Shown one piece after another: positions 1-15,991 of a stretch of 15,991 bases of DNA. Below the pieces are notes generated by a model. It saw nothing but the letters and a program-made list of their open reading frames with translations. It ran no database searches and had not been told where the DNA came from. Position 1 is the stretch's first letter, and every line of letters begins with the position of its first letter. Source of the DNA: Parachlamydiales bacterium (GTDB lineage Bacteria > Chlamydiota > Chlamydiia > Chlamydiales > JAJFMK01); assembly GCA_963765145.1 (NCBI GenBank), contig CAVXVG010000017.1, positions 1-15,991 of the forward strand, given 5' to 3'. Made by a program: the position numbers and the translations under genes.

Positions 1-1
1 G

Positions 2-1033
2 GGTGGCCAGTGTTTTGACAGATCGTTTAGATCCAAGACCCTCGCCAAAAAATGGAAGAGGGATATGGAGTCGGCAATTGAGCAGGATCGCTACGAATTC
101 ACGAATCCTGCAACCAAACACACCCTTGCGGATCTGATCGCCCTCTACATCGAGAGAGTACTGCCTGGGAAGCCACGGAATGCCAAGAATGTTCTTCGGC
201 ACCTGACTTGGTGGAAGGAGGAACTTGGACATTTGCTGTTAGCTCAAGTGCGGCCTAGCATAATCGCAGAAAAAAGGGATGAGCTGCTTGCGGGCTTTGT
301 TAGAAGCGGAAAGCTCCGCTCTCCCACAACGGTGGTGCGCTATCTGAGCAGTTTATCTCATGTCTTTTCAAAAGCAGTCAAAGAGTGGGAATGGATGAGA
401 GAGAATCCCGTTTTTAAGATCGAGAAGCCCAAACAGGCGCAGGGCAGAAAGCGAGTATTAACTGATGAGGAGCAGAAAAGACTTTTGCAGGCATGCCAAG
501 AGAGCGGATCGAAAGACTTGTTTTTGATCGTTGCTCTTGCTCTGGGAACAGGTATGCGCAAAGGCGAAATCATGGGGCTTAGATGGAGAAATGTTCAGTT
601 GGGAGAACCCACAGGAACGATTGCGCTCGAAAGAACGAAGAATGGTCGTTCAAGGTCTGTTTTGATTACTGGCTTGTTGTTAAGGCTTTTACAGCAGCGA
701 CGCAACCAGCAGCACGCTGATAACTTGATCTTTCCATCACCCAATTATCCCAATCAACCCGTTGATATTCGATCTGCTTGGGAAAAAGCTTTGCAAAATG
801 CTGGGATAGAAGGGTTTGTTTTTCATGGCTTGCGTCATCAGGCAGCTTCTCAAGCAGCAACGATTGAAAATAGTCCTTTGGTTATCGGAGAGTTGCTCGG
901 TCATCAAACGCTGCAGATGACCAAGCATTACGTTCATCTACCGAGCGCGCACATGCAAACAATGGTTGAGGCACTTCAATCAAAAATCTTTCAAAACTAT
1001 CAGGAGAGTAGCCATGCACAGCTTAGAAAATAA
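2..1033 (+). CDS. Tyrosine recombinase / phage-type integrase, 5' end outside the window
   Basis: Catalytic residues are in the expected order: TGMRKGE (R), RTKNG (K), FHGLRH (HxxR), LLGH, KHY (Y). The frame stays open upstream of ATG 65 to position 2 (GGQCFDRSFRSKTLAKKWKRD), so the true start is probably before the window. Confidence 0.93.
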   Translation, partial: GGQCFDRSFRSKTLAKKWKRDMESAIEQDRYEFTNPATKHTLADLIALYIERVLPGKPRNAKNVLRHLTWWKEELGHLLLAQVRPSIIAEKRDELLAGFVRSGKLRSPTTVVRYLSSLSHVFSKAVKEWEWMRENPVFKIEKPKQAQGRKRVLTDEEQKRLLQACQESGSKDLFLIVALALGTGMRKGEIMGLRWRNVQLGEPTGTIALERTKNGRSRSVLITGLLLRLLQQRRNQQHADNLIFPSPNYPNQPVDIRSAWEKALQNAGIEGFVFHGLRHQAASQAATIENSPLVIGELLGHQTLQMTKHYVHLPSAHMQTMVEALQSKIFQNYQESSHAQLRK

Positions 1034-1063
1034 GCCACAGACAGAATTGTGGAGACCAGAGCT
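1014..1063 (+). pseudogene. Possible 5' stub of a gene downstream of the integrase, cut by IS3
   Basis: AGGAG at 1002-1006 and ATG at 1014 overlapping the integrase 3' end. It reads MHSLENKPQTELWRPEL, then enters the IS3 terminal repeat. No homology is recognisable. Confidence 0.35.
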
Positions 1064-1166
1064 TGAAGTGGTTGGCTTAGGTTGGACAGATTTTGACGAG
1101 AATTAAGTAAAACCCTTTACCTAGTCTCTTTTCCCGCTGATTTAACTGAGCAGCTTGGGGACTGCT

Positions 1167-1325
1167 TCAGTCTAAAACATGTCTTTGTTTTTCTTCAACC
1201 TGTTTTTCTTCTCTAAACTGAAAATGATGATACTCCTCTAGGAAATAACCTACCGTTCCCTTCAAGAGCCTCCTCGCCGGTTGTGTAGCGAAGCGGAACA
1301 AGAAGGCGAAACATTCTTGGAACAT
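1167..1325 (-). CDS. Putative 52-aa ORF inside IS3, coupled to orfB
   Basis: The ATG overlaps the orfB stop (TGATG) and is preceded by GAGGGAG. Translation: MFQECFAFLFRFATQPARRLLKGTVGYFLEEYHHFQFREEKQVEEKQRHVLD. No family recognised. Confidence 0.25.
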   Translation of the reverse strand: MFQECFAFLFRFATQPARRLLKGTVGYFLEEYHHFQFREEKQVEEKQRHVLD

Positions 1326-2194
1326 CAAGCTCCCTCTATTTTTGTCCCTCTATAGACTGATCCTGGGGACATATAATTAAGAGATGAATGAGGCCTATTC
1401 TCGTTATAAAACTTAAAATATCGATCAAGGCTTCTTAGAGCATCAACCCCATCTAAATAGTCTCGGATATAAACCTCCTCTTGTTTTACTGTTCTCCATA
1501 GACGTTCTATCCAAACATTGTCCAAGGCTCTTCCCCGACCGTCCATACTAATTAGTATCCCAGCAGATTGTAGCATCTTCGTGAACTCAATGCTCGTATA
1601 CTGAGTTCCCTGGTCGGTATTAAATATATCTGGTTTCCCCTTCTCAAGAGCTTCAAGAACAACTTCTCTACAAAATATCCCGTCTAGAGAGTTGGATAGC
1701 CTCCAGGAAAGAACATAGCGGCTATACCAATCAATCACGGCTGTCAGATACAGAAAGCCATTCTTCATTGGCAGGTAGGTAATATCAGTGCTCCAAACCT
1801 GATTGGTCCGCTTAATCTCTATCCCTCTCAGTAGATAAGGGTATTTTTTATGGCCTGGGTGAGCCTGACTTAAGTCAGGCTTTGGGTAGACTGCTACTAT
1901 TCCCATTCGCCTCATTAAAGTTCGAGCCAAGTCCACACCTACTTCATACCCCATTTTTTTCAACTCGATACTGATACGTCTCTTGCCATAGTAAGGATGT
2001 TCCGTAAAAATCAGATCAATCTCCTTCATCAGGATCAAGTTAAACGTGTCATCCCTGCATGGCTCATAGTAGTAACAAGATCTTGTCAGTCCCAACAGAG
2101 CACATTGTCTCTCAATAGTAAGATCTTGATCCAATGGAGTAATAAGGTTTTTTTTCTCTTTTACGGACAGAGGTTCAGTTTTTTTTTCAGCCAA
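1325..2194 (-). CDS. IS3-family transposase OrfB (rve DDE integrase core)
   Basis: YGKRRI, WSTDITY, VIDWYSR, NTDQGTQY, DNVWIERLWRTVKQE and YNENRPHSSL motifs. It lies in the -1 frame relative to orfA. Confidence 0.96.
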   Translation of the reverse strand: MAEKKTEPLSVKEKKNLITPLDQDLTIERQCALLGLTRSCYYYEPCRDDTFNLILMKEIDLIFTEHPYYGKRRISIELKKMGYEVGVDLARTLMRRMGIVAVYPKPDLSQAHPGHKKYPYLLRGIEIKRTNQVWSTDITYLPMKNGFLYLTAVIDWYSRYVLSWRLSNSLDGIFCREVVLEALEKGKPDIFNTDQGTQYTSIEFTKMLQSAGILISMDGRGRALDNVWIERLWRTVKQEEVYIRDYLDGVDALRSLDRYFKFYNENRPHSSLNYMSPGSVYRGTKIEGA

Positions 2195-2439
2195 TCCCTC
2201 TCTACAGTCACCTCACCGATCTGCCTATAGAGTTCGTCCATTTTTTTTGTAGAATCAACACCCTTCTTTGGCATATTAAATACACCGGAGATGTTTTCTA
2301 GAAGTTGCTTTTTCCATTGGGAGATCTGAGCTGCGTGTACCTCGTATTGGGAGGCCAGCTCGCTCAGTGTTTTGATTTCTTTTGCAGCTTCCAAGGCCAC
2401 CTTTGCCTTAAAAATTGCTGTGTGTCTTTTGCGCGCCAT
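2161..2439 (-). CDS. IS3-family transposase OrfA (HTH)
   Basis: MARKRHTAIFKAKVALEA...LSELASQYEVHAAQISQWKKQL...ERDWLKKK is a typical OrfA. ATG 2439 is preceded by GAAGG. Confidence 0.93.
   Translation of the reverse strand: MARKRHTAIFKAKVALEAAKEIKTLSELASQYEVHAAQISQWKKQLLENISGVFNMPKKGVDSTKKMDELYRQIGEVTVERDWLKKKLNLCP
2179..2187 (-). promoter_or_regulatory. -1 programmed frameshift / slippage site (A9) joining OrfA and OrfB
   Basis: The minus strand reads TGG CTG AAA AAA AAA CTG in the orfA/orfB overlap, and orfB is in the -1 frame. This is the standard IS3-family mechanism. Confidence 0.8.
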
Positions 2440-2525
2440 GTTTACCTTCAATTTTTTTTGTTTTTGAAGGTAAAAGATTAACTTATTTTCGCTTATTTTC
2501 TGTCCAGTTTTGGCCAACCATTACA

Positions 2526-2742
2526 GCTGGGGTTGCAAGTATCCATGATCCAAGCCAGGACCACCGTGAACAACGATTATTGGCATACCTTGACCAATTT
2601 CATTGTAATACAGGCATCCATCCTTGACCTTAACAAAGCTGTGCTGTGCCACATCTGATTTTGGGCTGTGTTCACTTGCGAAACCTGCAAACCATACCCC
2701 CATAAATAAGAGAGCAAACATTGATTTTGATAAAGCCTTCAT
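2526..2742 (-). pseudogene. Alpha/beta hydrolase (proline iminopeptidase-like) with signal peptide, 3'-truncated by IS3
   Basis: Hydrophobic N-terminus followed by LYYNEIGQGMPIIVVHGGPGLDHGYL. The stop codon comes from the IS end, and the catalytic domain is not present on the other flank. Confidence 0.8.
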
Positions 2743-2844
2743 TGGCTGGATTCCTTGTTATAAATTTTTTTCAATCTTTCTGTTTTACAGAGGGTCAGTA
2801 TGCCAGCATCTCAGTTAAAATTCACTCTAAACCAGCCAAATTGT

Positions 2845-3967
2845 CTAACGACTCTTAGACTTTTTTGCTTTGGTCTTTTTTGGCTTCTTTTGGCTTTCGG
2901 GGACTGTGCTTAATTCAGCTTCAATCTCTTCAACTGTAGGCAGGCTTGACTTAAGCTCTTTTGGCAGCTTTTCAACTACTTTGACTTCAAATTCTGCCAC
3001 CCCAATAGGTCGATTAAAGTTCCTTAAAACGTACTCAGCAAAGATATTGTCCTTTGTCTTGCATAGGATAATCCCAATGCTTGGTTGATCATCATCACGT
3101 TTAAGCTGATCGTCTACAGCCGAAAGATACGCACTCATTTGTCCAGCATCGCGACTATCGAATTTTCCTCCCTTTAGCTCCACGATTACGTAACATCGCA
3201 ATGTAAGGTGATAGAAAAGCAGGTCGATATACAGGTCCTGGTTTCCTGCTTTGAGGAGATACTGTTGACCAACAAAAGCAAAACCTTGTCCCAGTTCAAT
3301 CAAGAATTTTTGGATGTGTTTGACTAAAGCTTCTTCTAAGTCTTTCTCTAAGTGCTCTTTGTGCAGGGTGAGAAAGTTAAAGACATATGGGTCTTTTAAC
3401 GATTGCTGTGCTAAATCTGACTGCGGGGCTGGCAACGCCGCTTTGAAGTTTGTTATTGCTTTTCCTTCTCTGCGATACAAGTCGTTTTCGATCCAAATTG
3501 TGAGCATGCTTCTGCTCCACCCATGTTCTATCGTTTTGGAAGCATACCAAAGACGCTCTGCTGTATCCTTAATCTTTTCAAGGATGAGTGCATTATGCCC
3601 CCAAGGGATGGAAAAAATAGGTAAATCGCCTAATTGTGCCACAGCTTGTGGCACTTTTGCATATGCCTGATAAAAAGCCTTCATCCTAAACATGTTACGC
3701 CTTGAGAATCCCTCGACACCAGGGAACTCATTTTGAAGCTCTTTAGCCGCCTTTTCTAATATGTTACTGCCCCAGCCTTCTTTCTCCTGCTTTTCAAATA
3801 TATCCTTACCAATTTCCCAATAAAGCTTGATCAATTCAGACTATTACCCGTAACGGCGGCCTTGATCTGGGCTGATCGAATTTTAACTTTCAATGAGGTA
3901 ATGAATTTTGTATATTCGGCGGGGGATACATCCCCTTTTTGATGGCTGGGATGGACTTTTTAGGCAT
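2845..3967 (-). CDS. YhcG/DUF1016 PD-(D/E)XK nuclease-domain protein, with two frameshifts near the 5' end
   Basis: LYWEIG, GFSRRN, IPWGHN, KDPYVFNFL, FLIELGQGFAFVGQQ, IDLLFYH and VELK motifs. The N-terminus MPKKSIPAIKKG/DVSPAEYTKFITSLKVKIRSAQIKAAV can be rebuilt from ATG 3967 across indels at about 3933 and 3840. Confidence 0.9.
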
Positions 3968-4030
3968 TGGAATTTCCTGTTGAAGGCAATAAATCTTTCA
4001 TGAGTAGCTCCATTTCGATTAGCTTGCCTC

Positions 4031-4640
4031 TCATAATATACTCACTAGTGATGCAATGCCAAAACCTATAATAATAAGTCCAGCAAAGCGATTGATCCAA
4101 ACCATTACTTTTTGGCTCATTTTTTTTCGGAAAAAGGTTACCCCTTCGCTTAATAATAACCACCAGAAAGCTGAGCCGAAAAAAATTCCTAAAACAAGAA
4201 TAATTGAGTCAGCATAACTTCCTGTAGTAGAGAGTCCTAAACCTGCAAATACAGCTAAAAAAGAGAGAATCGTCATTGGGTTTGTAATTGTTAAGAAAAA
4301 GGTGGAAATAAAGTCAGATAGAAGAGTTTTATGCGACACTCCAGAATGTGAGATTTCTTGTGCCTTGGCGATAGCAGTTTTTACACCAAGATAGAATAGA
4401 AAAATGCCACCGATCAGACGCAGCCAGAATTGATTAGCAATTAGAAAGATTTGACACAAAAGTCAACCCAAAAGCTGCAATGATACCATAAATGCAATCG
4501 GCCGCGGCTGCACCAAGGCCAGAAAAGAATCCTGATAATCGACCAAACTGCAATGTCCTACGAATGCAAAGGATACCAATTGGACCTACAGGAGCAGCGA
4601 TAGAAAATCCAAGGATCAGTCTTTTAAGAAAAAAGATCAT
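4031..4640 (-). CDS. LysE/RhtB-family amino acid exporter, frameshifted at about 4448
   Basis: GFSIAAPVGPIGILCIRRTL and GLGAAAAD in the first ORF. LTITNPMTIL, GSAFWW and INRFAG in the second. RBS GAGG before ATG 4640. Confidence 0.9.
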
Positions 4641-4774
4641 CTTGTCCTCATTGTTTGTTTTTTTCCTTGTTTCACTATCTTCGTTTTCTTTTAAGAGTGG
4701 CCATAGCATTCTCCAATGTAAGAAGAAATCATAGCAGTTTTTTAGTTAAAAGTCTGCATGAGTTCTGAATTTAT

Positions 4775-5494
4775 TCAGAGCACTACGTCGTGCTCTGCTT
4801 GGGGTATCTTTCCTTGTTCTAAAAGAGATTCACATAAGGGAATAAATTGGCTTAGCAATTGGGCGGAATTATCGTAACATCGAATGAAAGCTTGAAGAGA
4901 CACCACTAGCGTAGGCAAGGCCAAGTCTGGGAATATCTTGTTCTGATTAAGGCCCAGGTAAGCCACATGTTTTTCCCAATCCAGTTGAACATAGGCCTTG
5001 ATCACCCCAGCAGCGTTCGGATGGGCAAATTCACTAAGAATTAATACTGGTTGAAATATCCCTTAATCTGTTTACCTAATCCATCCCTAACAAGTGTTAG
5101 TATATGGTGGGGAGTCATAGAAGAAGTCCCATCTCTGGTCTGAATTTTCGCACCTAACATCGCCTTTGTTAGGAATTTTCGAATTTTGGGCACAGATTTT
5201 TTCTTTAAGAGCATATTCTAACAGAGTAGTGAATTCCCAAAAGAGGGATTCAGTTTCCATTACGCTTCTGCAAAGAGTAAAGGCTGTTATAAGTTTATTC
5301 TTTTGGAAAGCATCATATGTAGACCCCGCAAGTTCTGTGATGCGGTGTAAGCAGGCTTCCCTTAACACATGAGCTCTGCATGGGTCTATTGCTTTAGAAA
5401 TAACAAGAGGAATTTCCCATGGGAGACTATTTTCCAAAGTGTCAATACTATCCTTCAGGGCTTTTAAATAAGACTGTTCGCTTTCTGGTGCCAT
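4775..5494 (-). CDS. Hypothetical helical protein, HEPN-like (DUF5677-like), split by two frameshifts
   Basis: Three frames join across indels at about 5200 and 5042 into one protein of about 240 aa, containing CRSVMET and Y.ILSEFAHPN. The family call is from motif resemblance only. Confidence 0.55.
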
Positions 5495-5514
5495 TAAATC
5501 AGGCCTTTTTATAT

Positions 5515-6157
5515 TCAATTATTATCATCAACTAGCTTAATTTCAATACGTTCAATTCCTTTACCAGACCTAGACCTCTTTAAGGTAACACAGCCCACCT
5601 CTTTGGTGGACTTAACATGAGTTCCTCCACAGGGAACCTCCGCGAAGCCATCAATCTTCCAAAAACGTCTTTGCGTAGTAACATCGGTAAAGCCAGTTTG
5701 GATGGGGCAGTCTGCGTAATGATCTTGTTGTAATCATCCAGAATCACATCAAAAAGGGAGGATATGTGCTCTGGGAAAACAAAATCAATTCTGGCTTTGT
5801 TTTCTGCAATATGAGCTCCTACCTTTTCTAGATGATACTTTTGAGTCACAATTTCTAGAACAAGCTCAGCTGCAAAATGTAGTCGCATGAGCCTGTATCT
5901 CCGCAGCCAATCAATAGTCATTTGCACTACATCTCCTACAGAAAGGCCATGTCCTTCGGGTAACGTGTAGTAGATCAGATTGCCTTCTTTTCGTGAATCG
6001 ATGACAGGGAGGTCATCAATCCATGCCTTATCGCTTTCTTGCCCACCAGAAAACGAATAGGCGATAGTCTCTTGAATAGGAGTTCATTTCCATTGACTTG
6101 GGAGACAGTGGTTGTAAGAGATTGCTGATAAGGATTGTCCCAAAATATTTTTCGCAT
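5515..6157 (-). CDS. AlaX-type alanyl-tRNA editing protein, frameshifted at about 6072 and 5715
   Basis: Joined sequence: MRKIFWDNPY...ETIAYSFSGGQESD...RRYRLMRLHFAAEL...KARIDF...EVPCGGTHVKSTKEVG...GKGIERIEI, ending at TGA 5517-5515. Confidence 0.88.
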
Positions 6158-6159
6158 CT

Positions 6160-6594
6160 TCACACACCTAGCACTTTTTTGACTTTTTTACCGAACCCGA
6201 TGAGTCGTTCTTTTGGCTCATTGGAAAAGACAAAACGCACATATTTACCTGCTGTTTCACCCCAACCAACCATAGGTGTTGTTGCAATTTTGGTTTCTTG
6301 TAGGAGGCGTTCAGAGAGCTTTTGGGAAGTGATTCCAAATGGAGTGGTATCAAGAAGTAGAGACCAACCACCATGAGGAGGAATTGCAGGAAGGTCTTCT
6401 AGCTCGTTTAGCAATGTATTACGTCTTATCCTCCCACACTTTCAATGCGGATTGCAATCCATCATCTTTTGCATTGAGTGCAGCAGTAACTCCCGCCATG
6501 CTAATCCCTGTTTGGCATACGACATTCGATATGCTAACAAGGCCAATGTCATTCATAATGGCTTTTGGGCCTACGATCCAGCCAATGCGCCATC
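6160..6594 (-). pseudogene. C-terminal part of a class I/II PLP-dependent aminotransferase, 5' part removed at IS21
   Basis: WRIGWIVGP...RRNTLL...PHGGW...YVRFVFS, with an indel at about 6427. The IS21 junction falls in the Gly codon of GWRIG, so the PLP lysine is missing. Confidence 0.85.
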
Positions 6595-6751
6595 TGTCAA
6601 GCGACATCAGAAATTGACCCCTTTACGACATTGAGAATTGACCCACCCCTAAAAGTTTCTTTAATTACTACAGCTGCCTAACGGCCTCTATATTGAAGCT
6701 TCAACAGTAGTTGGAGTTAACTAAACTCCAGGTTATCGCTTAAGCTTGATT

Positions 6752-6803
6752 CCCCTCTTCTCACTGAAGGGGGCGGCCACTTTCCCCATGAGGGAAGTGT
6801 TTT
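6752..6803 (+). terminator. Twin-hairpin unit copy 1, terminator-like
   Basis: CCCCTCTTC-TCACT-GAAGGGGG, then CACTTTCCC-CATGA-GGGAAGTG, then TTTT. Confidence 0.45.
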
Positions 6804-6908
6804 ACGTCAATTTTCTTGACTGGTCTTATTTTTCGTCTGGCTCCATCCATCTTTGAAGCCTAACAATGTGTTTTTATAGAAGGATGAATAATTTTCTTCT
6901 TCCTCTGC

Positions 6909-7096
6909 TTCCAGGCGTAGAGTGTTGACAAGTTCATAAGCAGCCACAGTAGAATTTACCAAAACAAAACTGCTTATGAACTTGTCGACACCGAGCCTGG
7001 GGACTGTTTGCAGGTTGTTCATTTTGTTCAAAAAACTGATCGAGCTCTAACCAAATAAATGCTTTTTTTTGAACAATATGAATAAGCTGTGAACAG
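6909..7096 (+). ncRNA. Candidate structured RNA/ssDNA: two adjacent long hairpins inside IS21
   Basis: Stem 6922-6943/6970-6991 (21 Watson-Crick pairs plus 1 U-G), extended by 6909-6916/6995-7002. Stem 7004-7035/7065-7096 (32 positions, 3 G-U, 2 mismatches). The inverted repeats are directly visible, but expression is unproven. Confidence 0.45.
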
Positions 7097-7161
7097 CGGA
7101 GCCTTTCGAAAACAAGATTGTGACATTTTTTGTATCCAATAATAAATTGTAGTTTTTCTTT

Positions 7162-7225
7162 TGCCCTTACCTTCTCATTGAAGAAAGGGGACAACCACCC
7201 CTTCATGGAGAAGGGGCGATTTTTT
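7162..7225 (+). terminator. Twin-hairpin unit copy 2, terminator-like, abutting the istB stop
   Basis: CCCTTACCTTC-TCATT-GAAGAAAGGG, then CCCCTTC-ATGGA-GAAGGGG, then CGATTTTTT. Confidence 0.55.
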
Positions 7226-8012
7226 ACTTCACTTCCGACTGCGGTGTTGTGGGTTTGATCAAACCCGACTTCCTCTTCTCCTTTAGTCGGTAACTTTCCC
7301 CTCGAATGGTCACCACTTGGCTATGATGTAAGAGTCGATCCAAAATAGCCGTTGCAACGACGGTGTCGCTAAAAACCTCTCCCCATTCGCCGACAGAACG
7401 ATTGCTTGTAATCAGAGTACTGCCTTTTTCATAACGCCTGGAGACTAACTGAAAAAATAGATGGGCCGCTTTTGGCTCAAAAGGCAGGTACCCAAGTTCA
7501 TCGATAATCAGCAGTTTTGGTTTTGCATATGCAGTAATCTTTTCTTCAAGTCGCCCCTCTTGGTGAGCTCGAGCCAGCTGGGTTAAGAGGGTTGTTGCTG
7601 AAGTGAAAAGAACGCTATATCCCAAACAAATGGCTTCACGGCCAAGTGCTACTGCTAAATGCGTTTTCCCAACTCCAGGTGGGCCTAACAAAAGAACCGC
7701 ATCACCGTTGGCCACCCATCGACACATGCCAAGCTCTCGGATTTGGCCAGCATCCAAAGAAGGCTGAGCGCTAAAATCAAATTGCTCCAAGGTTCTGACA
7801 TAGGGAAATTTGGCCATAGTAAACCCCATTCGATTGCGCGTCTGGTCTCTATGCTGTATTTCCTGTTTGCAGAGGAAGGCAAGGGCTTCTCGAAGATTCA
7901 TCTCTTTACGAGAGGCCTCATCGAGGAGGTTATCCAACTTGTCTCGAATCGTCGTTAATTTTAACCGGTTGAGTGCCGCCACTAAATTTTCATGACTTAC
8001 ATTCATAGCCAT
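7224..8012 (-). CDS. istB: IS21 helper AAA+ ATPase IstB
   Basis: FDFSAQP, Walker A GPPGVGKT, Walker B LLIIDELGY, ITSN, AILDRLLHH and GESYRLK motifs. The start overlaps the istA stop. Confidence 0.97.
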   Translation of the reverse strand: MAMNVSHENLVAALNRLKLTTIRDKLDNLLDEASRKEMNLREALAFLCKQEIQHRDQTRNRMGFTMAKFPYVRTLEQFDFSAQPSLDAGQIRELGMCRWVANGDAVLLLGPPGVGKTHLAVALGREAICLGYSVLFTSATTLLTQLARAHQEGRLEEKITAYAKPKLLIIDELGYLPFEPKAAHLFFQLVSRRYEKGSTLITSNRSVGEWGEVFSDTVVATAILDRLLHHSQVVTIRGESYRLKEKRKSGLIKPTTPQSEVK

Positions 8013-9294
8013 CCTCCACCAGTGATAGCTTCGTATTCGGAAAGAGGGCGAAGCAGTTCGGCGGGTTTCTCTGGAACATCACAAATTGGAGTTTTCCTAT
8101 GCCAATTCGCTCCAACAATCCCTTTTAAATGTTCGGGATTTATCGAGCGCTGCCTCTCTCCAATGCATTCGGGATGGCGAGCTATTTCCTCAGCATTATA
8201 AAAAATTCTAACCTCCGTGCCGCTTATCTGTACGGTGACTTCTGCTTTGATTAGATGCCAAGGCACACTATAAAAATTTGTATCCAGCTCAATGCAGGCG
8301 TCGGTATCCACAGACCTTTGCACTTCCCTTCCCAGGTGAAATGGAGGCTTTCCGTTTAGTGGTTGAAGCGAACCGCTTCCTGTCTTTGGAAGCGGTCTAT
8401 GGGTTTTTCACCTGTTGTTCCGTGCATCCTTTGATCTGAGATCTCCCTCATCCACCAAGCGATGTGTTCTCCAAGAGCTTCCCAACTCGAGAATTCCCTT
8501 CCAGCAATTGCATTATACTTAAAATATTTGACTGTGTTTTCATCTTTTCCTTTCGTTCTGGCTCTATAAGGAGCGCAGGCCTTTGGCTGAAATTTCCAGT
8601 AGTTTGCAAATGTATGCAAGCGTTCATTGAACACCACCTCTCGTGTCAATGGATTATGGCTGATAACAAGAGGCCTTGGATTGTCTAATAGTACTTCTTG
8701 CGTAATTCCGCCAAAATGATGGAAAGCTCCTTCAAGGCCCTCAAACCAAGCGGATTGACGTTCATGGATAAATGCACGAATGTATTGACGGCGCGAAAAT
8801 CCCAGAACTGCTGCAAAGAAATAAATTCTTCTTGGATCTCCGGCTATTTTGATGATTATTGAACCAAAATCAATTTGCATCTGTTTGCCCGGTGGAGTCT
8901 CAAATCGAACTGTTGCTTTTGCTAAAGCGAACGCTCTTTGCCTGAATGGTTTCACAGCCCTCTCAATGGTACGTAGATTGGCTTGTATATTGTGTTGACG
9001 CACCAATTCTTGACGAATAACTTCGGCATTTCCTTTATGGAGGTTGAACATTTCTTCGAGCCAGATATCTAACGCTTCTAATTTCTTCATTCTTTTAGGG
9101 ATGTTATAGGGGAGCCATTTCCCTTGCCGTCGATAGTGTTTAACGGTGTTGGGACTAATTCCAAGCTCCTTAGCTATTCGTCTTTTCCCCCACCCTTCCG
9201 ACGATAACTTTAAAATCTTGTCTACTATGTCTGGTGATTCCATTGGTTGTCTGCTGTCTCCTGTTAAAACAGCAGAGATTTTATCGGTTTTCAT
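8003..9294 (-). CDS. istA: IS21 transposase IstA, frameshifted at about 8370
   Basis: N-terminal HTH, RFETPPGKQMQIDFG, LLDN, PYRARTKGKDE and HGTTGEKP motifs. The C-terminal beta-barrel part (NFYSVPW...RPLSEYE) is in a second frame. RBS GAGGG before ATG 9294. Confidence 0.93.
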
Positions 9295-9373
9295 GCTTAC
9301 CCTCACTCCAAGTGTAGGGGGGTGGGTCAATTCTCAATGTCGTAAAGGGGTCAGTTTACGCTGTCGCCTGACA

Positions 9374-10586
9374 GGGGTTGGAGAAAAGACCGAGAATCTA
9401 ATGAAGAGGGAATCACTCTGGCAGCTTTAATGATGTTTGGAAAATATCATTCAATTACAGATATGGGTGCAGCACCTTCCTATTTTGTTGATTATCGCGA
9501 AAGGCTTGACCCTAACGTCCGTTGGAGCCATAGAATTTATCCTGATGGAACTTGGGAAGCCAATCTCTTTCAGTTTTATCAAAGAATTTGGCCTCATCTT
9601 TCAGCAGATCTTAAAGTCCCATTTTTCCTTGATGGTATTCAGCGAGTTGATGATACGCCTGTACATAAGGCGCTACGCGAGGCTTTCGTTAATACCTTGA
9701 TTCACTCAGACTATTCCTCTAGTGGGGGCATTATTATTGAACGCTACAAAGATCGTTTCATTCTTGATAATCCAGGAACTCTGCTCGTTTCTTTAGAGCA
9801 GTTGCGCCGAGGAGGGATTAGTGAATGTCGGAATAGGGCACTTCAGAATATGTTCATGATGATTGGCGGGGGAGAAAAAGCTGGCTCAGGTATTCACCAA
9901 ATTCAAAATGAGTGGAAAACTCAGCATTGGCGCGCTCCTGCCTTTCAGTGTTAATGAACAACCCAATCGTGTTAGGCTTGTTCTTCCAATGGTTAGTTTA
10001 ATTCCTGAAGTGACTCTAGCTTCTTTAGAACAACAATTTGGATCAGACTTTAGAAATTTAAAGCATTTAGAAGTTGTGGCACTTGCTACCGCAGATATTG
10101 AAGGGGATGTTTCAAATACGCGATTGCAAGAGCTCCAAACAGAACATCCAACAGAAATTACGCAGGTTTTGCAGCGTCTTTGCTCAAGGGGCATGCTTGT
10201 TTCAGACAACCGTCGTAGATGGTCAAGCTATAGAATATCTAGCTCCCCACATTTGGACTACTCCTAGCTCCCCACATTTGGACCCTAGCTCCCCACATTT
10301 GGAGCTTAATTCTGTGGATTTAGAGAAGCAAAGTCTTAAAGATTTAGCTAAATCGATTGCTTGTTCAAAAAGATCTGGAAAACAAGCCGTGCGTGATATT
10401 ATTCTTCAGCTCTGTCGAGTAAGGCCACTCAGTTTAGACGATCTTGCACAATTATTAAATAGAAGTCCCAAAAGTATTCAAAACCACTATTTAACCCAAC
10501 TAGTTTATGAAGGGGTTTTAGAGTTGCGGCATCCTGAAACACCTAGCCACCCCGCCCAGGCATATCTAAGCAAAGACAGATTTTAG
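9374..10586 (+). pseudogene. ATP-binding (HATPase_c_4/RecG-C-like) protein with C-terminal HTH, 5'-truncated by IS21, two frameshifts
   Basis: It begins at the IS end with GWRKDRESNEEGITLAALMMFG. Further motifs: ALREAFVNTLIHSDY, RNRALQNMF, EKAGSG and terminal PETPSHPAQAY. Frameshifts at about 9945 and 10260. The N-terminal AlbA/Schlafen domain usual in this architecture is absent. Confidence 0.78.
10239..10304 (+). repeat. Three tandem copies of CTAGCTCCCCACATTTGGA (SSPHL-coding repeat)
   Basis: Copies start at 10239, 10264 and 10285, giving periods of 25 and 21 bp. Confidence 0.92.
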
Positions 10587-10597
10587 GAGAAGGTGAA

Positions 10598-10780
10598 GTG
10601 GAATACCTTGAAATGTTAAATAATCTCGCAAGCTGCCTTTCCCCGCAGAATCAGATGGAAAGCTTGCTGGTTGAAAAAATCGCTTTGCTGATACGACAAT
10701 TGACATGGAACCATTTCATTGCCCTCATTTCGACCAAAGATGCCTTGAAACGTCAGGACGCTGTGGAAGCAGATCCTTAG
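10598..10780 (+). pseudogene. Short chimeric remnant, second half resembling a DUF1016 fragment
   Basis: LIRQLTWNHFIALISTKDALKR resembles the YhcG 'QLSWxH...' segment. The equivalent in the upstream copy is SIPWGHNALILEKIKD. Confidence 0.4.
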
Positions 10781-10841
10781 TGCTTCTCTATTAGAAGTTT
10801 AAGTTATTGATATTGAATATGTTAGTAAATTTGTTTCAGAT

Positions 10842-10863
10842 TAGTACTAGTTTGTGGTACTAT
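10842..10863 (+). promoter_or_regulatory. Probable hicAB promoter/operator
   Basis: Inverted repeat TAGTAC-N9-GTACTA overlaps an extended -10 (TGgTACTAT, 10855-10863), about 22 bp upstream of hicA. Confidence 0.55.
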
Positions 10864-10885
10864 ATAAATAGATAAGGATTGAGAA

Positions 10886-11194
10886 ATGAGCAAAAAGCAT
10901 CAGCAGACCCTCGAATCGATTTATAAAATTCCAACTCAATCAAATGTGGCATGGAAAGATTGTGAAAAATTACTCATATCCCTAGGGGCCGAGGTGTCCG
11001 AGGGGGCAGGATCGCGGGTTCGCTTTGTTCTCAATGGAGTTAAAGCAAACTTTCACCGTCCTCATCCACAAAAAGAAACGGATAAGGGAGCCTTGGTTTC
11101 TTTGAGAAAGTTTTTAGAAAACGCGGGTATAACACCCAGGAGAAGAAGAAAAAATGATGAAGCACAAAGGATATATTGGTCATGTCGAATATGA
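10886..11194 (+). CDS. hicA: HicA-family toxin
   Basis: VAWKDCEKLLISLGA, EGAGSRV and FHRPHP motifs, directly upstream of hicB. The C-terminal extension overlapping hicB may be an indel artefact. Confidence 0.92.
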   Translation: MSKKHQQTLESIYKIPTQSNVAWKDCEKLLISLGAEVSEGAGSRVRFVLNGVKANFHRPHPQKETDKGALVSLRKFLENAGITPRRRRKNDEAQRIYWSCRI

Positions 11195-11477
11195 CGATGA
11201 AGCCAAGATTTTCCATGGTGAAGTTGTCGGTCTTAGAGACATCATCACTTTTCAAGGGAAAAGCGTTGAGGAACTGGAAAAGGCATTCAAAGACTCCATC
11301 GATGATTACCTCACTTGGTGCAAAGAAAGGGGGGAAAGGCCTGAGAAAACATTTTCAGGGACTTTTAACCTCAGAATTCCTCCCGAACTTCATGCTAAAC
11401 TTGCTTTTCAGGCAAAAACAATGGACATGAGTCTGAACACCTACGTGACCGAAAAACTTCGCATCCTCGCCGAATAA
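11154..11477 (+). CDS. hicB: HicB-family antitoxin
   Basis: MKHKGYIG, DIITFQG, SIDDYL, and the C-terminal RHH FSGTFNLRIPPELH...SLN. Confidence 0.95.
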   Translation: MMKHKGYIGHVEYDDEAKIFHGEVVGLRDIITFQGKSVEELEKAFKDSIDDYLTWCKERGERPEKTFSGTFNLRIPPELHAKLAFQAKTMDMSLNTYVTEKLRILAE

Positions 11478-11560
11478 ACTTCTCTAAAGGCAGGTGACCT
11501 TCTCCCATTCCTCAGTCCAGTATTAGTTATAGGTTCCCGGGGTGAGTAGAATCACACCCT

Positions 11561-11624
11561 ATTATGGCGCGATTCCGCAAATCACGCCATAAATGTGGCG
11601 CGATTTTGGGAATCGCGCCATAAT
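11561..11624. promoter_or_regulatory. Double palindrome, probable operator of the Fic gene
   Basis: TTATGGCGCGATT-N5-AATCACGCCATAA and TGGCGCGATT-N5-AATCGCGCCA are 31 bp apart. The outer arms form a perfect 16-bp IR. Confidence 0.65.
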
Positions 11625-11643
11625 GGGAGAAAAGGGTGAGGGG

Positions 11644-13021
11644 ATGATGGTTAAGCGGGTTCCTTGGGATATTTTGTTAGAGATTATTGAGAGATTTCCG
11701 CAAGGATCTAGCCTTGAGGAGGTTATGCTTGCTATGGACCCCAAGATCTCACGCCGCACCCTCCAAAGATGGCTTGCACTGCTTGTAAAGAATAACCAGC
11801 TGCTCGCGATTGGATCGGCCCGGGCTAGGCGTTACAAGGCTTTCCCCATTTTTGAGGAAGAAGGGGGGGATTCTCTTCAGAGCCTCTCTTTTCCGGTGAC
11901 TCGAAGAGGGGGCATTGATTCAGGAAAAGGTGGCTAGACCAATGCATGCCAGACATCCTGTGACTTATAACAGGCAGTTTTTGGAGGATTACAAGCCCAA
12001 TCATACCTATTACCTCCCAGAAGAGCTTCGAAGAAGGTTACTCCTACTCGGTGGTACAGGGGAGGGAAGATATCCTGCAGGGACCTATGCGCGAGAAATT
12101 TTTCACCGTTTATTGATCGATCTTTCCTGGAATTCTAGCAGGCTTGAAGGGAATACCTATTCCCTTTTAGAAACGGAGCGATTGCTTGAGCGGGGAAAAG
12201 TCGCAGATGGTAAAGGTCTTAAAGAGACCCAGATGATCCTAAATCATAAAGCGGCCATTGAGTTTTTAATCCATTCTGCAGGAGATATCGGAGTAAATCG
12301 CTTTACGATTTTGAACCTTCATACTTTTTTATCGGATAATTTAATGCCCGATCCAGCAGCGTCTGGCCGTTTGCGGACATTCTCTGTAGGGATCTCCCAT
12401 TCCACCTATTTGCCGATTGCGATTCCTCAGGTGATTCAAGAGTGTTTTGATTTGTTGATCACAAAAGCGAGTCACATTAAAGATCCCTTCGAACAGGCTT
12501 TTTTCTTGATGGTCCACATTCCTTATTTGCAGGCTTTTGATGATGTGAATAAAAGAACTTCTCGCCTTGCAGCGAATATCCCACTCATTCAAAAGAATCT
12601 GTGTCCTCTGTCATTTATCGACCTCCCAGAACAGATCTACATCAATGGTCTGCTCGGAGTCTATGAGTTAAACCGAGTGGAGCTATTACGGGATGTATTC
12701 GCCTGGGCTTATGAGCGGTCGTGTCATTTGTATTCCAGAACCACAAAGGCATTGGGCGAGCCCGATCCCTTTCGGATGAAATACCGGAATGCCATTGGTC
12801 AGGTCGTTGGAGAAGTTGTTCGCCTTAAGATGAGCAAGAATAAAGCAGTTCAAGGGATTCGGCAGGAATCTTTAAAGCGAATTCCCCTGCAGGATCAACC
12901 TCGTTTTATTGAGATAGTGGAGAGGGAGCTTTTGAGTTTGCACGAGGGGAACATCGCTCGATACCAACTGAGTTTAAAAGAATTCGAGCAGTGGAAAAAG
13001 CTATGGGAAACAGAGAGTTAG
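11644..13021 (+). CDS. Fic-domain protein with N-terminal HTH, frameshifted at about 11901
   Basis: HTH-like ISRRTLQRWLALLV...GSARARRY, inhibitory motif SSRLEGN and Fic motif variant LQAFDDVNKRTSR. RBS GAGGGG before ATG 11644. Confidence 0.9.
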
Positions 13022-13024
13022 AAA

Positions 13025-13434
13025 ATGGTTATGAAGAGGTTGCGCTGCGGGATTTTGTTGTTACTGCTATTTTTTTCTGTGGATCTTTGCTGTGGGGAAA
13101 AGAAGCATAAAAAAGGAGCGCAGAAGATCGTCGACTGCTTTTTGTTTTTTAATGAACTCGAGCTATTAACAGTGAGGCTCGAAGAGCTTTATGACCATGT
13201 CGATTATTTTGTCTTGGTGGAAGCGGCAGAAACGTTTCGAGGGAATCCCAAACCTTATATTTTTGAAGAAAATAAAGCGCGATTTCAGAAGTATCTGTCC
13301 AAAATTATTCATGTCAAGGTAGAGGATAGAAAACCCCATTATGGGGTGTGGGAAAGAGAAGGATTTCATCGCAATTGTATCAGAAGGGGGCTCGCTTTTT
13401 GTAAGAAAAACGACATCATTTTAATGTCCGATTT
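13025..13434 (+). pseudogene. Glycosyltransferase family 17 protein with signal peptide, truncated at the DxD motif
   Basis: DCFLFFNELELLTVRLEELYDHVDYFVLVEA.ETFRGNPKP...WEREGFHRN...DIILMSD, after which the similarity stops where the expected DE would follow. Confidence 0.85.
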
Positions 13435-13648
13435 CGGGCAATTTATGTACATATTGATCCCTCCCTTTAATTGCAGGAAGCTCCATTTTTTGCCTAAATA
13501 ACGCATCTAAGTCATAAACCGGGAAGTTTAACACCTCAGGAGAGACACCCGGCCGGTCCTCCAGAAATATTTGGAGCGGCGTTTTGCCCTTTTTAGAGAA
13601 GTTGGGTCTGGAAAAGTTGTAAAAGTCTCTGGTAGACCTGGGCCTTTC
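13421..13648 (-). mobile_element. 3' end of an IS481-like transposase element, interrupted by IS66
   Basis: The minus strand reads KAQVYQ/DFYNFSRPNFSKKGKTPLQIFLEDRPGVSPEVLNFPVYDLDALF...GRDQYVHKLP. This carries the YN..RP....G.TP signature of rve transposase C-termini. The element end is near 13435. Confidence 0.65.
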
Positions 13649-13678
13649 GTAAGCGTCTAATCTAGCCAGGTTGACAAA

Positions 13679-15232
13679 TTAAGGATCAACGGATTTTTGT
13701 TTTTGAGATTTTCTTCTCGCTTCAAGCCACCTGTCTGGTAAGAGCTCTTCGAGCTTACTGGCGCTATGCCCCATGAGTCTTCTGAAAATATCCTCGAGAT
13801 ATTCTCTTGGGTTTATGTCCAAGCCTCGACAAGTTTGCACAAATGAAAGAAGAATCGCTCCCGCCTCGCCACCATCTTCACTGCCGAAAAAGAGCCAATT
13901 TTTTCTGCCGATGGCCAAAGGACGCACTGCTCTTTCTGCAACATTGTTGTCTAATCTAGCAAATGGGTGTTCCGTGTAATTCTTCAAATAGGGAATCAAC
14001 CCACAAAAATAGCCCAATGCTTCGCGTAATTTGGATTTGGGGAGGATTCTGCCATCTAAAAGTTTACCTTTAATTTTTGCGATTAATTCCTCAATGATCG
14101 GGATCTCTTTTTCTTTCCGAATTCTTAGGCGTTCTTCAGCAGATCTGCGCCAAGCCACTTTTTCCAGCATGAAGAGGTATCGGATCTTTCGCAGTACAAA
14201 GGTACGCAGGGCGGGGTCTCCCGCTTCCGCTTCAAAAAACTTTCTTCTGATGTGAGCCCAACAGGGAAACCAGGTGATCCTTTTTTGCTCTGCCAGTTTT
14301 TGATAAGCAGCATACTTGTCGGAGTGCAGCCCTCCTTGATACCCCTGTAAAATATCTAGAACATTATCGTGCTTGCGATTAGGCCTAAAATCATAGACTC
14401 GATAGGGGGGATCGGAACACTCTCCTCCAACAACAACCCACATATAAGCTGTCTGACAAACATGCTTATCTTGAAGTTTTACTGGAGTTTCATCGATAAA
14501 GATGTTTTTGCTTTTGAGAATCGAGCGGACCATCACTTCATATAGAGGCTTGAGAGCCATGCCACAGCGGATTACCCACTGAGATAAAAGCTTCCGACTG
14601 ATCTTGACCCCTTCCAGTTCCATCTTTTCTGCAATCCGATATAGGGGCATGTGGCTCGCAAACTTCTCCGTAATGATATGGGCTAGGAAACTGTCATCTG
14701 CTTGGCACTTGGGAAGAAGAGTATCTGGCAGCAGCGCTATCTGGATTCCTGCTTCAGGTTTTTCAGGATGAGCATATTTGAGGCGGATAATCTCCTTAAT
14801 ATAATAGCTCCCTGGCTCATGGGCTAATTTATGAGTCACTTCTTCCCCGATCTTAACAAGGGGTTTTCCTGTTTCTTGGCAGATCTTTTCTTCTTCTGGA
14901 AGATCGATGACGGTTCTTTCTACCGGCATATCAGGATCCAGGGCAATCTTGTCTTTTCCATCCCGGTTGGGTTTCCTCCGTTTATGAGGAGGGACCTCTT
15001 GGGTTTCTTCTTCTGTCTTTGCCTGGAGATTTTCAAAACCCTCTAAGAAGAGTTGCTTTTCATCGCAGTTTGAAACAAGCCGTTCCGATTTTTTTCCGAA
15101 TAGTTGACGCTTAAACCATTCGAGTTGCCCGTTGAGATAAGTCACGGTGTTTTTCAAACCAACAACTTCGGTCTCCAAGATCTCGTTTCTGTTTTTAAGC
15201 TCTTCTGCATCTAGAATTTGCGTTGTAATCAT
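13679..15232 (-). CDS. tnpC: IS66 transposase TnpC
   Basis: LFGKKSE, HMPLYR, IDETPV, HSDKYAAY, CWAHIRRKF, LDNNVAERAVR, GRKNWLF and LEELLP motifs. Confidence 0.97.
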   Translation of the reverse strand: MITTQILDAEELKNRNEILETEVVGLKNTVTYLNGQLEWFKRQLFGKKSERLVSNCDEKQLFLEGFENLQAKTEEETQEVPPHKRRKPNRDGKDKIALDPDMPVERTVIDLPEEEKICQETGKPLVKIGEEVTHKLAHEPGSYYIKEIIRLKYAHPEKPEAGIQIALLPDTLLPKCQADDSFLAHIITEKFASHMPLYRIAEKMELEGVKISRKLLSQWVIRCGMALKPLYEVMVRSILKSKNIFIDETPVKLQDKHVCQTAYMWVVVGGECSDPPYRVYDFRPNRKHDNVLDILQGYQGGLHSDKYAAYQKLAEQKRITWFPCWAHIRRKFFEAEAGDPALRTFVLRKIRYLFMLEKVAWRRSAEERLRIRKEKEIPIIEELIAKIKGKLLDGRILPKSKLREALGYFCGLIPYLKNYTEHPFARLDNNVAERAVRPLAIGRKNWLFFGSEDGGEAGAILLSFVQTCRGLDINPREYLEDIFRRLMGHSASKLEELLPDRWLEARRKSQKQKSVDP

Positions 15233-15297
15233 GAGTAAAATTGTACCAAAAAGGAGCGTAAAAAAGAAGAAAAAACGCTCTAGTTTTCAGATGTTTT

Positions 15298-15627
15298 TCA
15301 TAGGGAAAATCGAGGCTGCAACCGCTTTGGAGTCACTCCTTCAAGTAACATCAGAAACTCTCTTCGAGTCACTGCCGGCTGGGCTTGATCCTTTTTAGAA
15401 AAACTTCCCTTTTCCAGGCGTTTACACCAAATTGCCAATCCGTCTGTGTCCCAGTAAAGCACCTTCATGTGGTCCCTATTTTTATTGAGGAAAATAAAAA
15501 ATGCTCCCGTTAGCAGCTCTCCTGGAAACAGCTGCTCTGTTAGGGCACTTAGTCCTTCAAAGCTTTTCCTCATACTTACTGGATATTGGCATAAGAATAA
15601 GCGGGGGTTTCCGGGGAGTGTTAGCAT
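15298..15627 (-). CDS. tnpB: IS66 accessory protein TnpB
   Basis: MRKSFEGL, FIFLNK, KVLYWDTDG and KRLEKGSF motifs. Confidence 0.95.
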   Translation of the reverse strand: MLTLPGNPRLFLCQYPVSMRKSFEGLSALTEQLFPGELLTGAFFIFLNKNRDHMKVLYWDTDGLAIWCKRLEKGSFSKKDQAQPAVTRREFLMLLEGVTPKRLQPRFSL

Positions 15628-15926
15628 GATGCCCTCTCAATAAAATGAAGACACTTGTCTAAGATTTGAAGAGCTATTCTGGCATCAGCATGAATTTTGC
15701 ATCCACGCCATTCAATGAGGATTTTTTCTTTGACAGGATCCTCTTTTAACTCTGTAAAATCATGCCGAGTAATTTTAGAGGCCTTTTTAGGAGCGTCCCT
15801 TTGCACCCAATAAATCAAAGTGTTCTTGTGAATTTGGTTCTCTCGGCACCATGCTGTCATTGATTTACCGCTTGTTTGCCACTCTTTTACTAATGCTCCC
15901 CATTCTTCACGCGTTCTTCTAGTCAT
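15621..15926 (-). CDS. tnpA: IS66 accessory protein TnpA (HTH)
   Basis: WQTSGKSMTAWCRENQI...YW motif, position upstream of tnpB, and RBS GGAGG. Confidence 0.88.
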   Translation of the reverse strand: MTRRTREEWGALVKEWQTSGKSMTAWCRENQIHKNTLIYWVQRDAPKKASKITRHDFTELKEDPVKEKILIEWRGCKIHADARIALQILDKCLHFIERASC

Positions 15927-15991
15927 AAAAGACCTCCATTGGTTTTTTTAATGGAGCAACATTAGCAGGTGTGAGGAAAGGCAAAAAGATG

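Follow-up and report, generated by a model that had tools for sequence, protein, structure and literature searches.

The A-site of the ABC primosome is of plasmid origin. Here DnaA is described as loading DnaB at a hairpin that forms in single-stranded DNA and contains a DnaA box (Masai et al. 1990; PMC6127211). Insertion sequences (IS) of the IS3, IS21 and IS1202 types are described as forming circular intermediates and are presumed to transpose by copy-out (10.1101/2023.06.07.543989); the first strand transfer leaves a 3′-OH in the flank, and host replication generates a duplex circle from the figure-eight (PMC7780238, PMC9333248). How the host replication machinery reaches the copy-out figure-eight is left open in the sections of these two papers that deal with the step. 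The module described here, two adjoining hairpins (A and B) at the right end of an IS21-family element in a chlamydial genome, shares with the A-site a hairpin in one strand, DnaA-box-like 9-mers in the stem and location on a mobile element. However, the A-site is one box in one hairpin, whereas the module has two hairpins with five to eight predicted box-like sites, apparently in host-specific letters, and lies inside an IS. It also resembles the bridge or seek RNAs of IS110/IS1111 and the omega RNA of IS200/605, in being structured, non-coding and located at the end of an IS, and the REP/REPIN sequences with their RAYT proteins, in being palindromic and non-coding. A likeness between other IS-end hairpins and PriA assembly sites was considered, and a literature search gave no confirmation of it. 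No description of such a module was found in the literature, subscription journals and supplements being outside the search, and the main text of PMC10132070 mentions neither hairpins nor non-coding sequence. The module is real, under selection and uncatalogued, a cis element that bears origin-like boxes and is found at the right ends of chlamydial IS.

The window, the whole 15,991-nt stretch of DNA that was analysed, is a contig of genome G000 and consists throughout (1–15991) of mobile-element debris, with an integrase, IS3, IS21, IS66, YhcG, hicAB, Fic and several gene fragments. Upstream of the Fic-domain gene it also contains a 32-bp inverted repeat (88%) composed of TGGCGCGAT units (11558–11627) and, downstream of a fragmented ATP-binding gene, a 20-nt repeat present three times (10239–10304) within the overlapping ORFs 9863–10267 and 10074–10586. 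The IS21-family element (Table 1) has terminal inverted repeats with 56-nt arms (91%), and its IstA and IstB score above the NCBIfam cut-offs; the closest named IstB records are from Chlamydiae (85%), which points to an environmental chlamydia as the host. Relative to the single 439-aa frame of the related element L013, the reading frame of istA is broken once, near codon 314. The element is present as a single copy in G000, and no target duplication flanks it. Both hairpins of the original prediction were confirmed at the positions given there; they occupy the interval that separates the right terminal inverted repeat from the istB stop (7224). The right-end segment shared with module-less relatives ends in a double hairpin at ∼6751–6800, the second hairpin of which is terminator-like on the + strand (6778–6799). 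Since this double hairpin is present twice, bracketing A and B, the A/B module is an insertion.

Table 1. Features of the window at and around the twin-hairpin module
Feature	Position	Strand	Remarks
IS21-family element, TG...CA ends	6595..9373	-	terminal arms, IstA/IstB profiles
Right terminal inverted repeat (IRR)	6595..6649		
Right-end segment common to module-less IS21 relatives L013, L122, L123	6650..6815	+	
Pyrimidine tract, 5′ of hairpin A	6892..6906	+	also in homologues and beside predicted oriC boxes
Hairpin A	6909..7002	+	outer stem, G/A-rich internal loop, core, variable loop
Hairpin A outer stem	6911-6916/6995-7000	+	box-free, conserved
Hairpin A core arms	6922-6943/6970-6991	+	22-nt arms, 95% complementary, separated by 26 nt
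Hairpin A oriC-type boxes in core	6923-6939; 6974-6990	-; +	
Hairpin A variable loop	6944-6969	+	
Hairpin B	7004..7096	+	arms 7004-7035/7065-7096: 32 nt, 84% complementary, 29 nt between
Hairpin B tandem T.G/G.T wobbles	7009-7010 with 7090-7091	+	conserved
Hairpin B boxes	7025-7033; 7067-7075; 7087-7095	-; +; +	
Hairpin B variable loop	7036-7064	+	
Double hairpin, second copy	7165..7217	+	terminator-like on + at 7198-7216
istB	7224..8012	-	262 aa, intact
istA in two frames	8003..9330 (8356-9330 and 8003-8323)	-	
Left terminal inverted repeat (IRL)	9319..9373		

The folded state of the module and the strand on which it folds are both conserved. The + strand of 6900–7105 folds at −90.2 kcal/mol (z −10.82; 0 of 200 shuffles as good) and the − strand at −74.6 kcal/mol (z −6.90). 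All six wobble positions listed in the original prediction are T.G or G.T on the + strand; the fold of hairpin B also includes one G.G and one T.T mismatch. When the window was compared with L121, an element with 91% IstB identity that also carries the module, the stems were identical at 112 of 116 positions, the loops at 38 of 56 and the four-fold sites of istB at 64 of 111, and hence the stem sequence has been kept well above the neutral level. Mean identity over 28 pairs was 0.88 in the stems and 0.39 in the loops, with 5′ and 3′ stem arms equally conserved (0.875 versus 0.876). Covariation was present: across eight sequences 97.8% of 456 cells were paired with 15 double changes, a level reached by 0 of 500 shuffles, although these core sequences are kin and the structure was derived from them, so that the shuffle counts are not probabilities. 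In the core of hairpin A all 220 cells from 12 sequences were paired, with 11 double changes, and four of the six pairs of its outer stem have changed doubly. Wobble columns are G-T in 11 cases (34 cells) and A-C in two (two cells), almost never the latter, which identifies the + strand as the folding strand, and DNA folding energy favours the antisense strand in all eight copies. The proposed folded single-stranded element antisense to istAB is thus borne out by the compensatory changes and the conserved fold, and the suggestion that it binds a protein also gains ground, since the stem sequence, beyond pairing alone, has been retained across homologues and is probably read by a protein. The G-T bias in itself fits RNA and single-stranded DNA equally, and deamination of a single strand (C-to-T/A-to-G) gives the same bias. 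A weak signal of the same kind, 15 G-T versus 3 A-C and 3 boxes against 0.74 expected over 14 clusters, was obtained for GC-rich IS21 ends from outside the Chlamydiae with an insensitive ungapped stem finder; the end was located for 94 of 162 loci, and 33 loci fell together in one cluster.

The description of the hairpins as IS21-encoded did not hold, as the module is common to IS1202-type and IS3 elements and is missing from several close IS21 relatives; it is optional cargo and not an IS21 component. It adjoins an IS21 transposase in the window, L121 and L002, an ISNCY/IS1202-type transposase in L094, L096 and L202, and an IS3 transposase in L095 and L308, with L002 and L308 assigned to family by inspection of their ORFs. 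In all eight of these copies the module lies downstream of the transposase and antisense to it, and in the seven for which the script located the right end of the element that end is 55–305 nt away. L097 provides a further copy, at the end of an IS, and L201, an IS1202-type element with an internal deletion, has retained the module with a transposase stub only. In L201 (1371–1726, L320) the 20 nt past hairpin B repeat, in inverted orientation (19/20), the flank beyond the right end, an arrangement seen at one locus.

A nucleotide search of 400 scored genomes of the phylum, a set that excludes G062, gave four strong matches besides G000; within one family, 5 of 129 genomes had a match. The covariance model added diverged versions with loops of 3–8 nt in L002 (IS21), L308 (IS3), L297, L305 and L309 (IS3-type ends at contig ends, judged by eye) and L311 and L315 (no transposase seen), together with single hairpins in L298–L300 and L302. 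Weak DNA matches in G038 and G041 lay within unrelated coding genes and were discarded. Plasmid and phage collections gave no matches or short chance matches only, and none of the 17 loci from three pattern scans of viral contigs was matched by the covariance model. Among 30 IS1202-type loci the module was found in one, the query's own, and the close IS21 relatives L010, L013, L016, L029, L035, L066, L122 and L123 gave no model match in a search of 98 sources. The interval from the istB stop to the element end ranges from <60 to >900 nt among 80 IstB relatives from genomes. In the closest of these relatives (L013–L016, L010, L122 and L123) it is short and ends in the double hairpin without A or B, and L013–L016 are four IS21 copies that lack the module and have 5-bp target duplications. 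Other recurring hairpins occur on the same strand at module-less IS1202-type and IS21 right ends (L222–L250; L024, L025, L030, L061, L064, L078), and in L064 and L078 TTATCCAC and TTGTCCAC lie in a long stem.

The covariance model (R1) also matched, at 23–45 bits, chromosomal intergenic loci without a transposase (L210–L213, L301, L304 and L252). These are located upstream of a glmU-like gene and ispA, gene names that were assigned by inspection, and contain inverted arrays of TTATGAACA and TTATCGACA with an 11-bp period. In G091, GC skew around the locus goes from −0.041 to +0.106, with the cumulative minimum at 272,339 and the gene at 275,979; in G001, a single contig like G091, it turns from negative to positive less sharply and with a 26-kb offset, and in G000 the turn is blurred. 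Because GC skew flips at the glmU-like/ispA locus, we read it as the predicted oriC. The candidate oriC region of environmental Chlamydiae comprises L210–L213, L251–L255, L301, L304 and G000:C27:52310–52610, and in some genomes its inverted arrays make up long palindromes that are nearly perfect. A reading of the purine-rich triplets of this region as DnaA-trios was not adopted, since their strand seems opposite to the Bacillus subtilis layout and chlamydiae are not mentioned in the main text of PMC8287927.

Boxes of the type TT(A/G)TGAACA, inverted arrays and a pyrimidine tract on the 5′ side are common to the module and the predicted oriC. The latter differs in having regular 11-bp arrays and an AT-rich region, and no counterpart of the hairpin A outer stem or internal loop was seen in it. 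In six origin regions defined by gene order alone, TATCAAC, TTCCACA, ACAAGTT, ATGAACA and GAAGAAG are enriched; TTCCACA is absent among the 7-mers of the module. The 7-mers learnt from the origins are enriched in seven of eight modules relative to pairing-preserving shuffles of stem pairs (p 0.0005–0.015; 0.015 for the window module), the enrichment in L097 being not significant. This test is modest, with 0.8% of 26,788 genome windows scoring as high as the window module and two AT-rich non-origin regions outscoring it. An AT-rich segment of the window upstream of hicAB (10701–10900) contains nine origin-type 7-mers and ranks second among non-origin regions, probably as a result of composition. 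The box pattern has five to eight sites in seven long modules, one to four in five short or diverged ones and none or one in seven module-less IS21 ends, against a background mean of 0.42 per window over 2,282 windows, and the count is partly circular as the pattern was written after both sets had been seen. From the match to the predicted oriC, we infer that the boxes are DnaA sites. One full-length DnaA was found in G000, and it differs from that of Escherichia coli at D433 and T435, which we take to be base-contacting positions of the recognition helix; these differences would fit altered boxes. The module boxes differ from both TTATCCACA and TTTTCCACA, the latter proposed for Chlamydiae in an Ori-Finder description. 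The resemblance to the predicted oriC speaks for DNA over RNA as the folding strand.

The most likely function of the module is that of a single-stranded DNA signal for host DnaA. We tentatively propose, at somewhat less than even confidence, that the twin hairpin displays predicted DnaA boxes, in the letters of the host origin, on single-stranded DNA, and that helicase and primase of the host are thereby loaded as the element transposes by copy-out. This presupposes that DnaA would bind the boxes, that the folding strand would be DNA and that it would be displaced during figure-eight replication. The left end would have to act as donor, so that the circularized strand would be the antisense strand. 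Displacement would start at the right end, and the displaced strand would then have the module at its 5′ start, among the first DNA to become single-stranded. There the folded stem with its predicted DnaA boxes could direct host DnaB loading and priming, as at the A-site, and a helicase loaded at the module would travel 5′ to 3′ across the element. The proposal would explain why the module folds on this strand and lies where it does, why different transposase families share it, why its loops are indifferent and why its boxes are of the host type. Since elements without the module transpose, it is at most an aid.

Alternatively, the boxes could bind DnaA or another origin-binding host protein in order to regulate the element, by cell-cycle timing or damped transposase expression, and with no part in priming, the palindromes simply following from inverted box arrays. 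The same box evidence applies here as to priming, the predicted origins L210, L301 and L304 likewise form palindromes from inverted arrays, the two arms are equally conserved, and the outer end of IS50 contains a DnaA site. However, sites read in duplex DNA explain neither the excess of G-T over A-C columns nor the conservation, in hairpin A, of an internal loop and of an outer stem that has no boxes but has doubly changed pairs, and we consider regulation without priming unlikely.

The structured RNA of the original prediction, transcribed antisense from the right end, wholly or in part, and binding a protein or regulating the transposase mRNA, agrees with the strong fold, the invariant G-U wobble, the compensatory changes and the G/A-rich internal loop, and a terminator-like hairpin follows on the + strand (7198–7216). 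It is nevertheless improbable. A promoter scan reported no consensus promoter upstream of the hairpins, a candidate chosen by eye at ∼6855–6885 being absent from the scan and its −35 part missing in L121; the terminator and the 3′ flank are not conserved across homologues; and the module lies outside the coding region. The Rfam comparison that had been suggested placed no family at its gathering score, the best overlapping matches reaching 28 and 26.6 bits against thresholds of 120 and 95. An antisense RNA also gives no reason for boxes and a pyrimidine tract in common with the predicted oriC. A protein-coding passenger gene was rejected, as there is no conserved frame, the indels among homologues are not multiples of three, and the 90-aa ORF at 6934–7206 has no Pfam match.

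It is less easy still to regard the module as a selfish or near-neutral palindromic repeat of the REP or MITE kind that IS ends have captured and whose symmetry is maintained by gene conversion or template switching. The right-end intervals of this IS21 clade do collect diverse hairpins, copies exist with no transposase nearby (L311 and L315), and rearranged versions occur. In one of these a perfected hairpin A lies within a 470-nt palindromic region (L203, G419:C100) and in another the truncated 3′ arm of hairpin B adjoins a long inverted repeat (L313, G098:C94). On the other hand, the stems are far more conserved than neutral sites and the polarity relative to the transposase is fixed. In contrast to REP/REPIN sequences, the module is not multi-copy in G000, has no RAYT link that could be found and occupies a fixed position inside IS right ends; a multi-copy repeat flanking a cognate RAYT was not found for it in G000, and membership of the REP/RAYT group was rejected. 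The repeats that go with the RAYT of G000 are unrelated to the module, and this protein, used as a query, was unmatched in all five module-bearing genomes in a search run without a positive control. This RAYT-like protein (G000:C29, L281:1378–2343) ends in a weak match to the DnaA C-terminal domain and is flanked by five copies, in inverted arrangement, of a 28-nt repeat unrelated to the module.

The least tenable reading, that a bridge- or omega-like RNA uses the loops as guides to programme target choice, is to be dismissed almost entirely. An IS end with conserved stems and variable loops does recall a guide scaffold in outline, but the longest match of a loop to its own flank was 4–7 nt and the same for foreign flanks in six elements, loops shrink to 3–8 nt in diverged copies, and the module is common to three unrelated DDE transposase families. 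The guide-like role first suggested is thus already largely refuted. Loop lengths in the module range from 3 to 30 nt across copies. The kinship of the two loops was not borne out: ACCAAA is present in both loops of the window, but it is not a conserved feature, being in both loops of only one of eight homologues, the window itself. A likeness of loop A to istB was set aside, as its orientation does not allow pairing with the mRNA, and loop A of L121 has a different sequence. Unlike the bridge, seek and omega RNAs, the module has no guide-like loop, is optional, has antisense polarity and is tied to no single transposase family; its neighbours are IS21, ISNCY and IS3 DDE transposases, with no obligate IS110, TnpB or IscB partner.

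For environmental Chlamydiae, the comparison with the predicted oriC proposes both a location of the origin and a DnaA-box consensus, TT(A/G)T(C/G)(A/G)ACA. A broader and more doubtful idea is that copy-out IS of several families carry interchangeable right-end priming signals, the module being a mini-origin tuned to the DnaA boxes of its host and the hairpins of sister elements being alternatives to it. If single-stranded priming is the function of the module, the long non-coding right ends of IS21, IS1202-type and IS3 elements would have a role, and a portable cis signal found in all three would make the figure-eight replication step directly testable.
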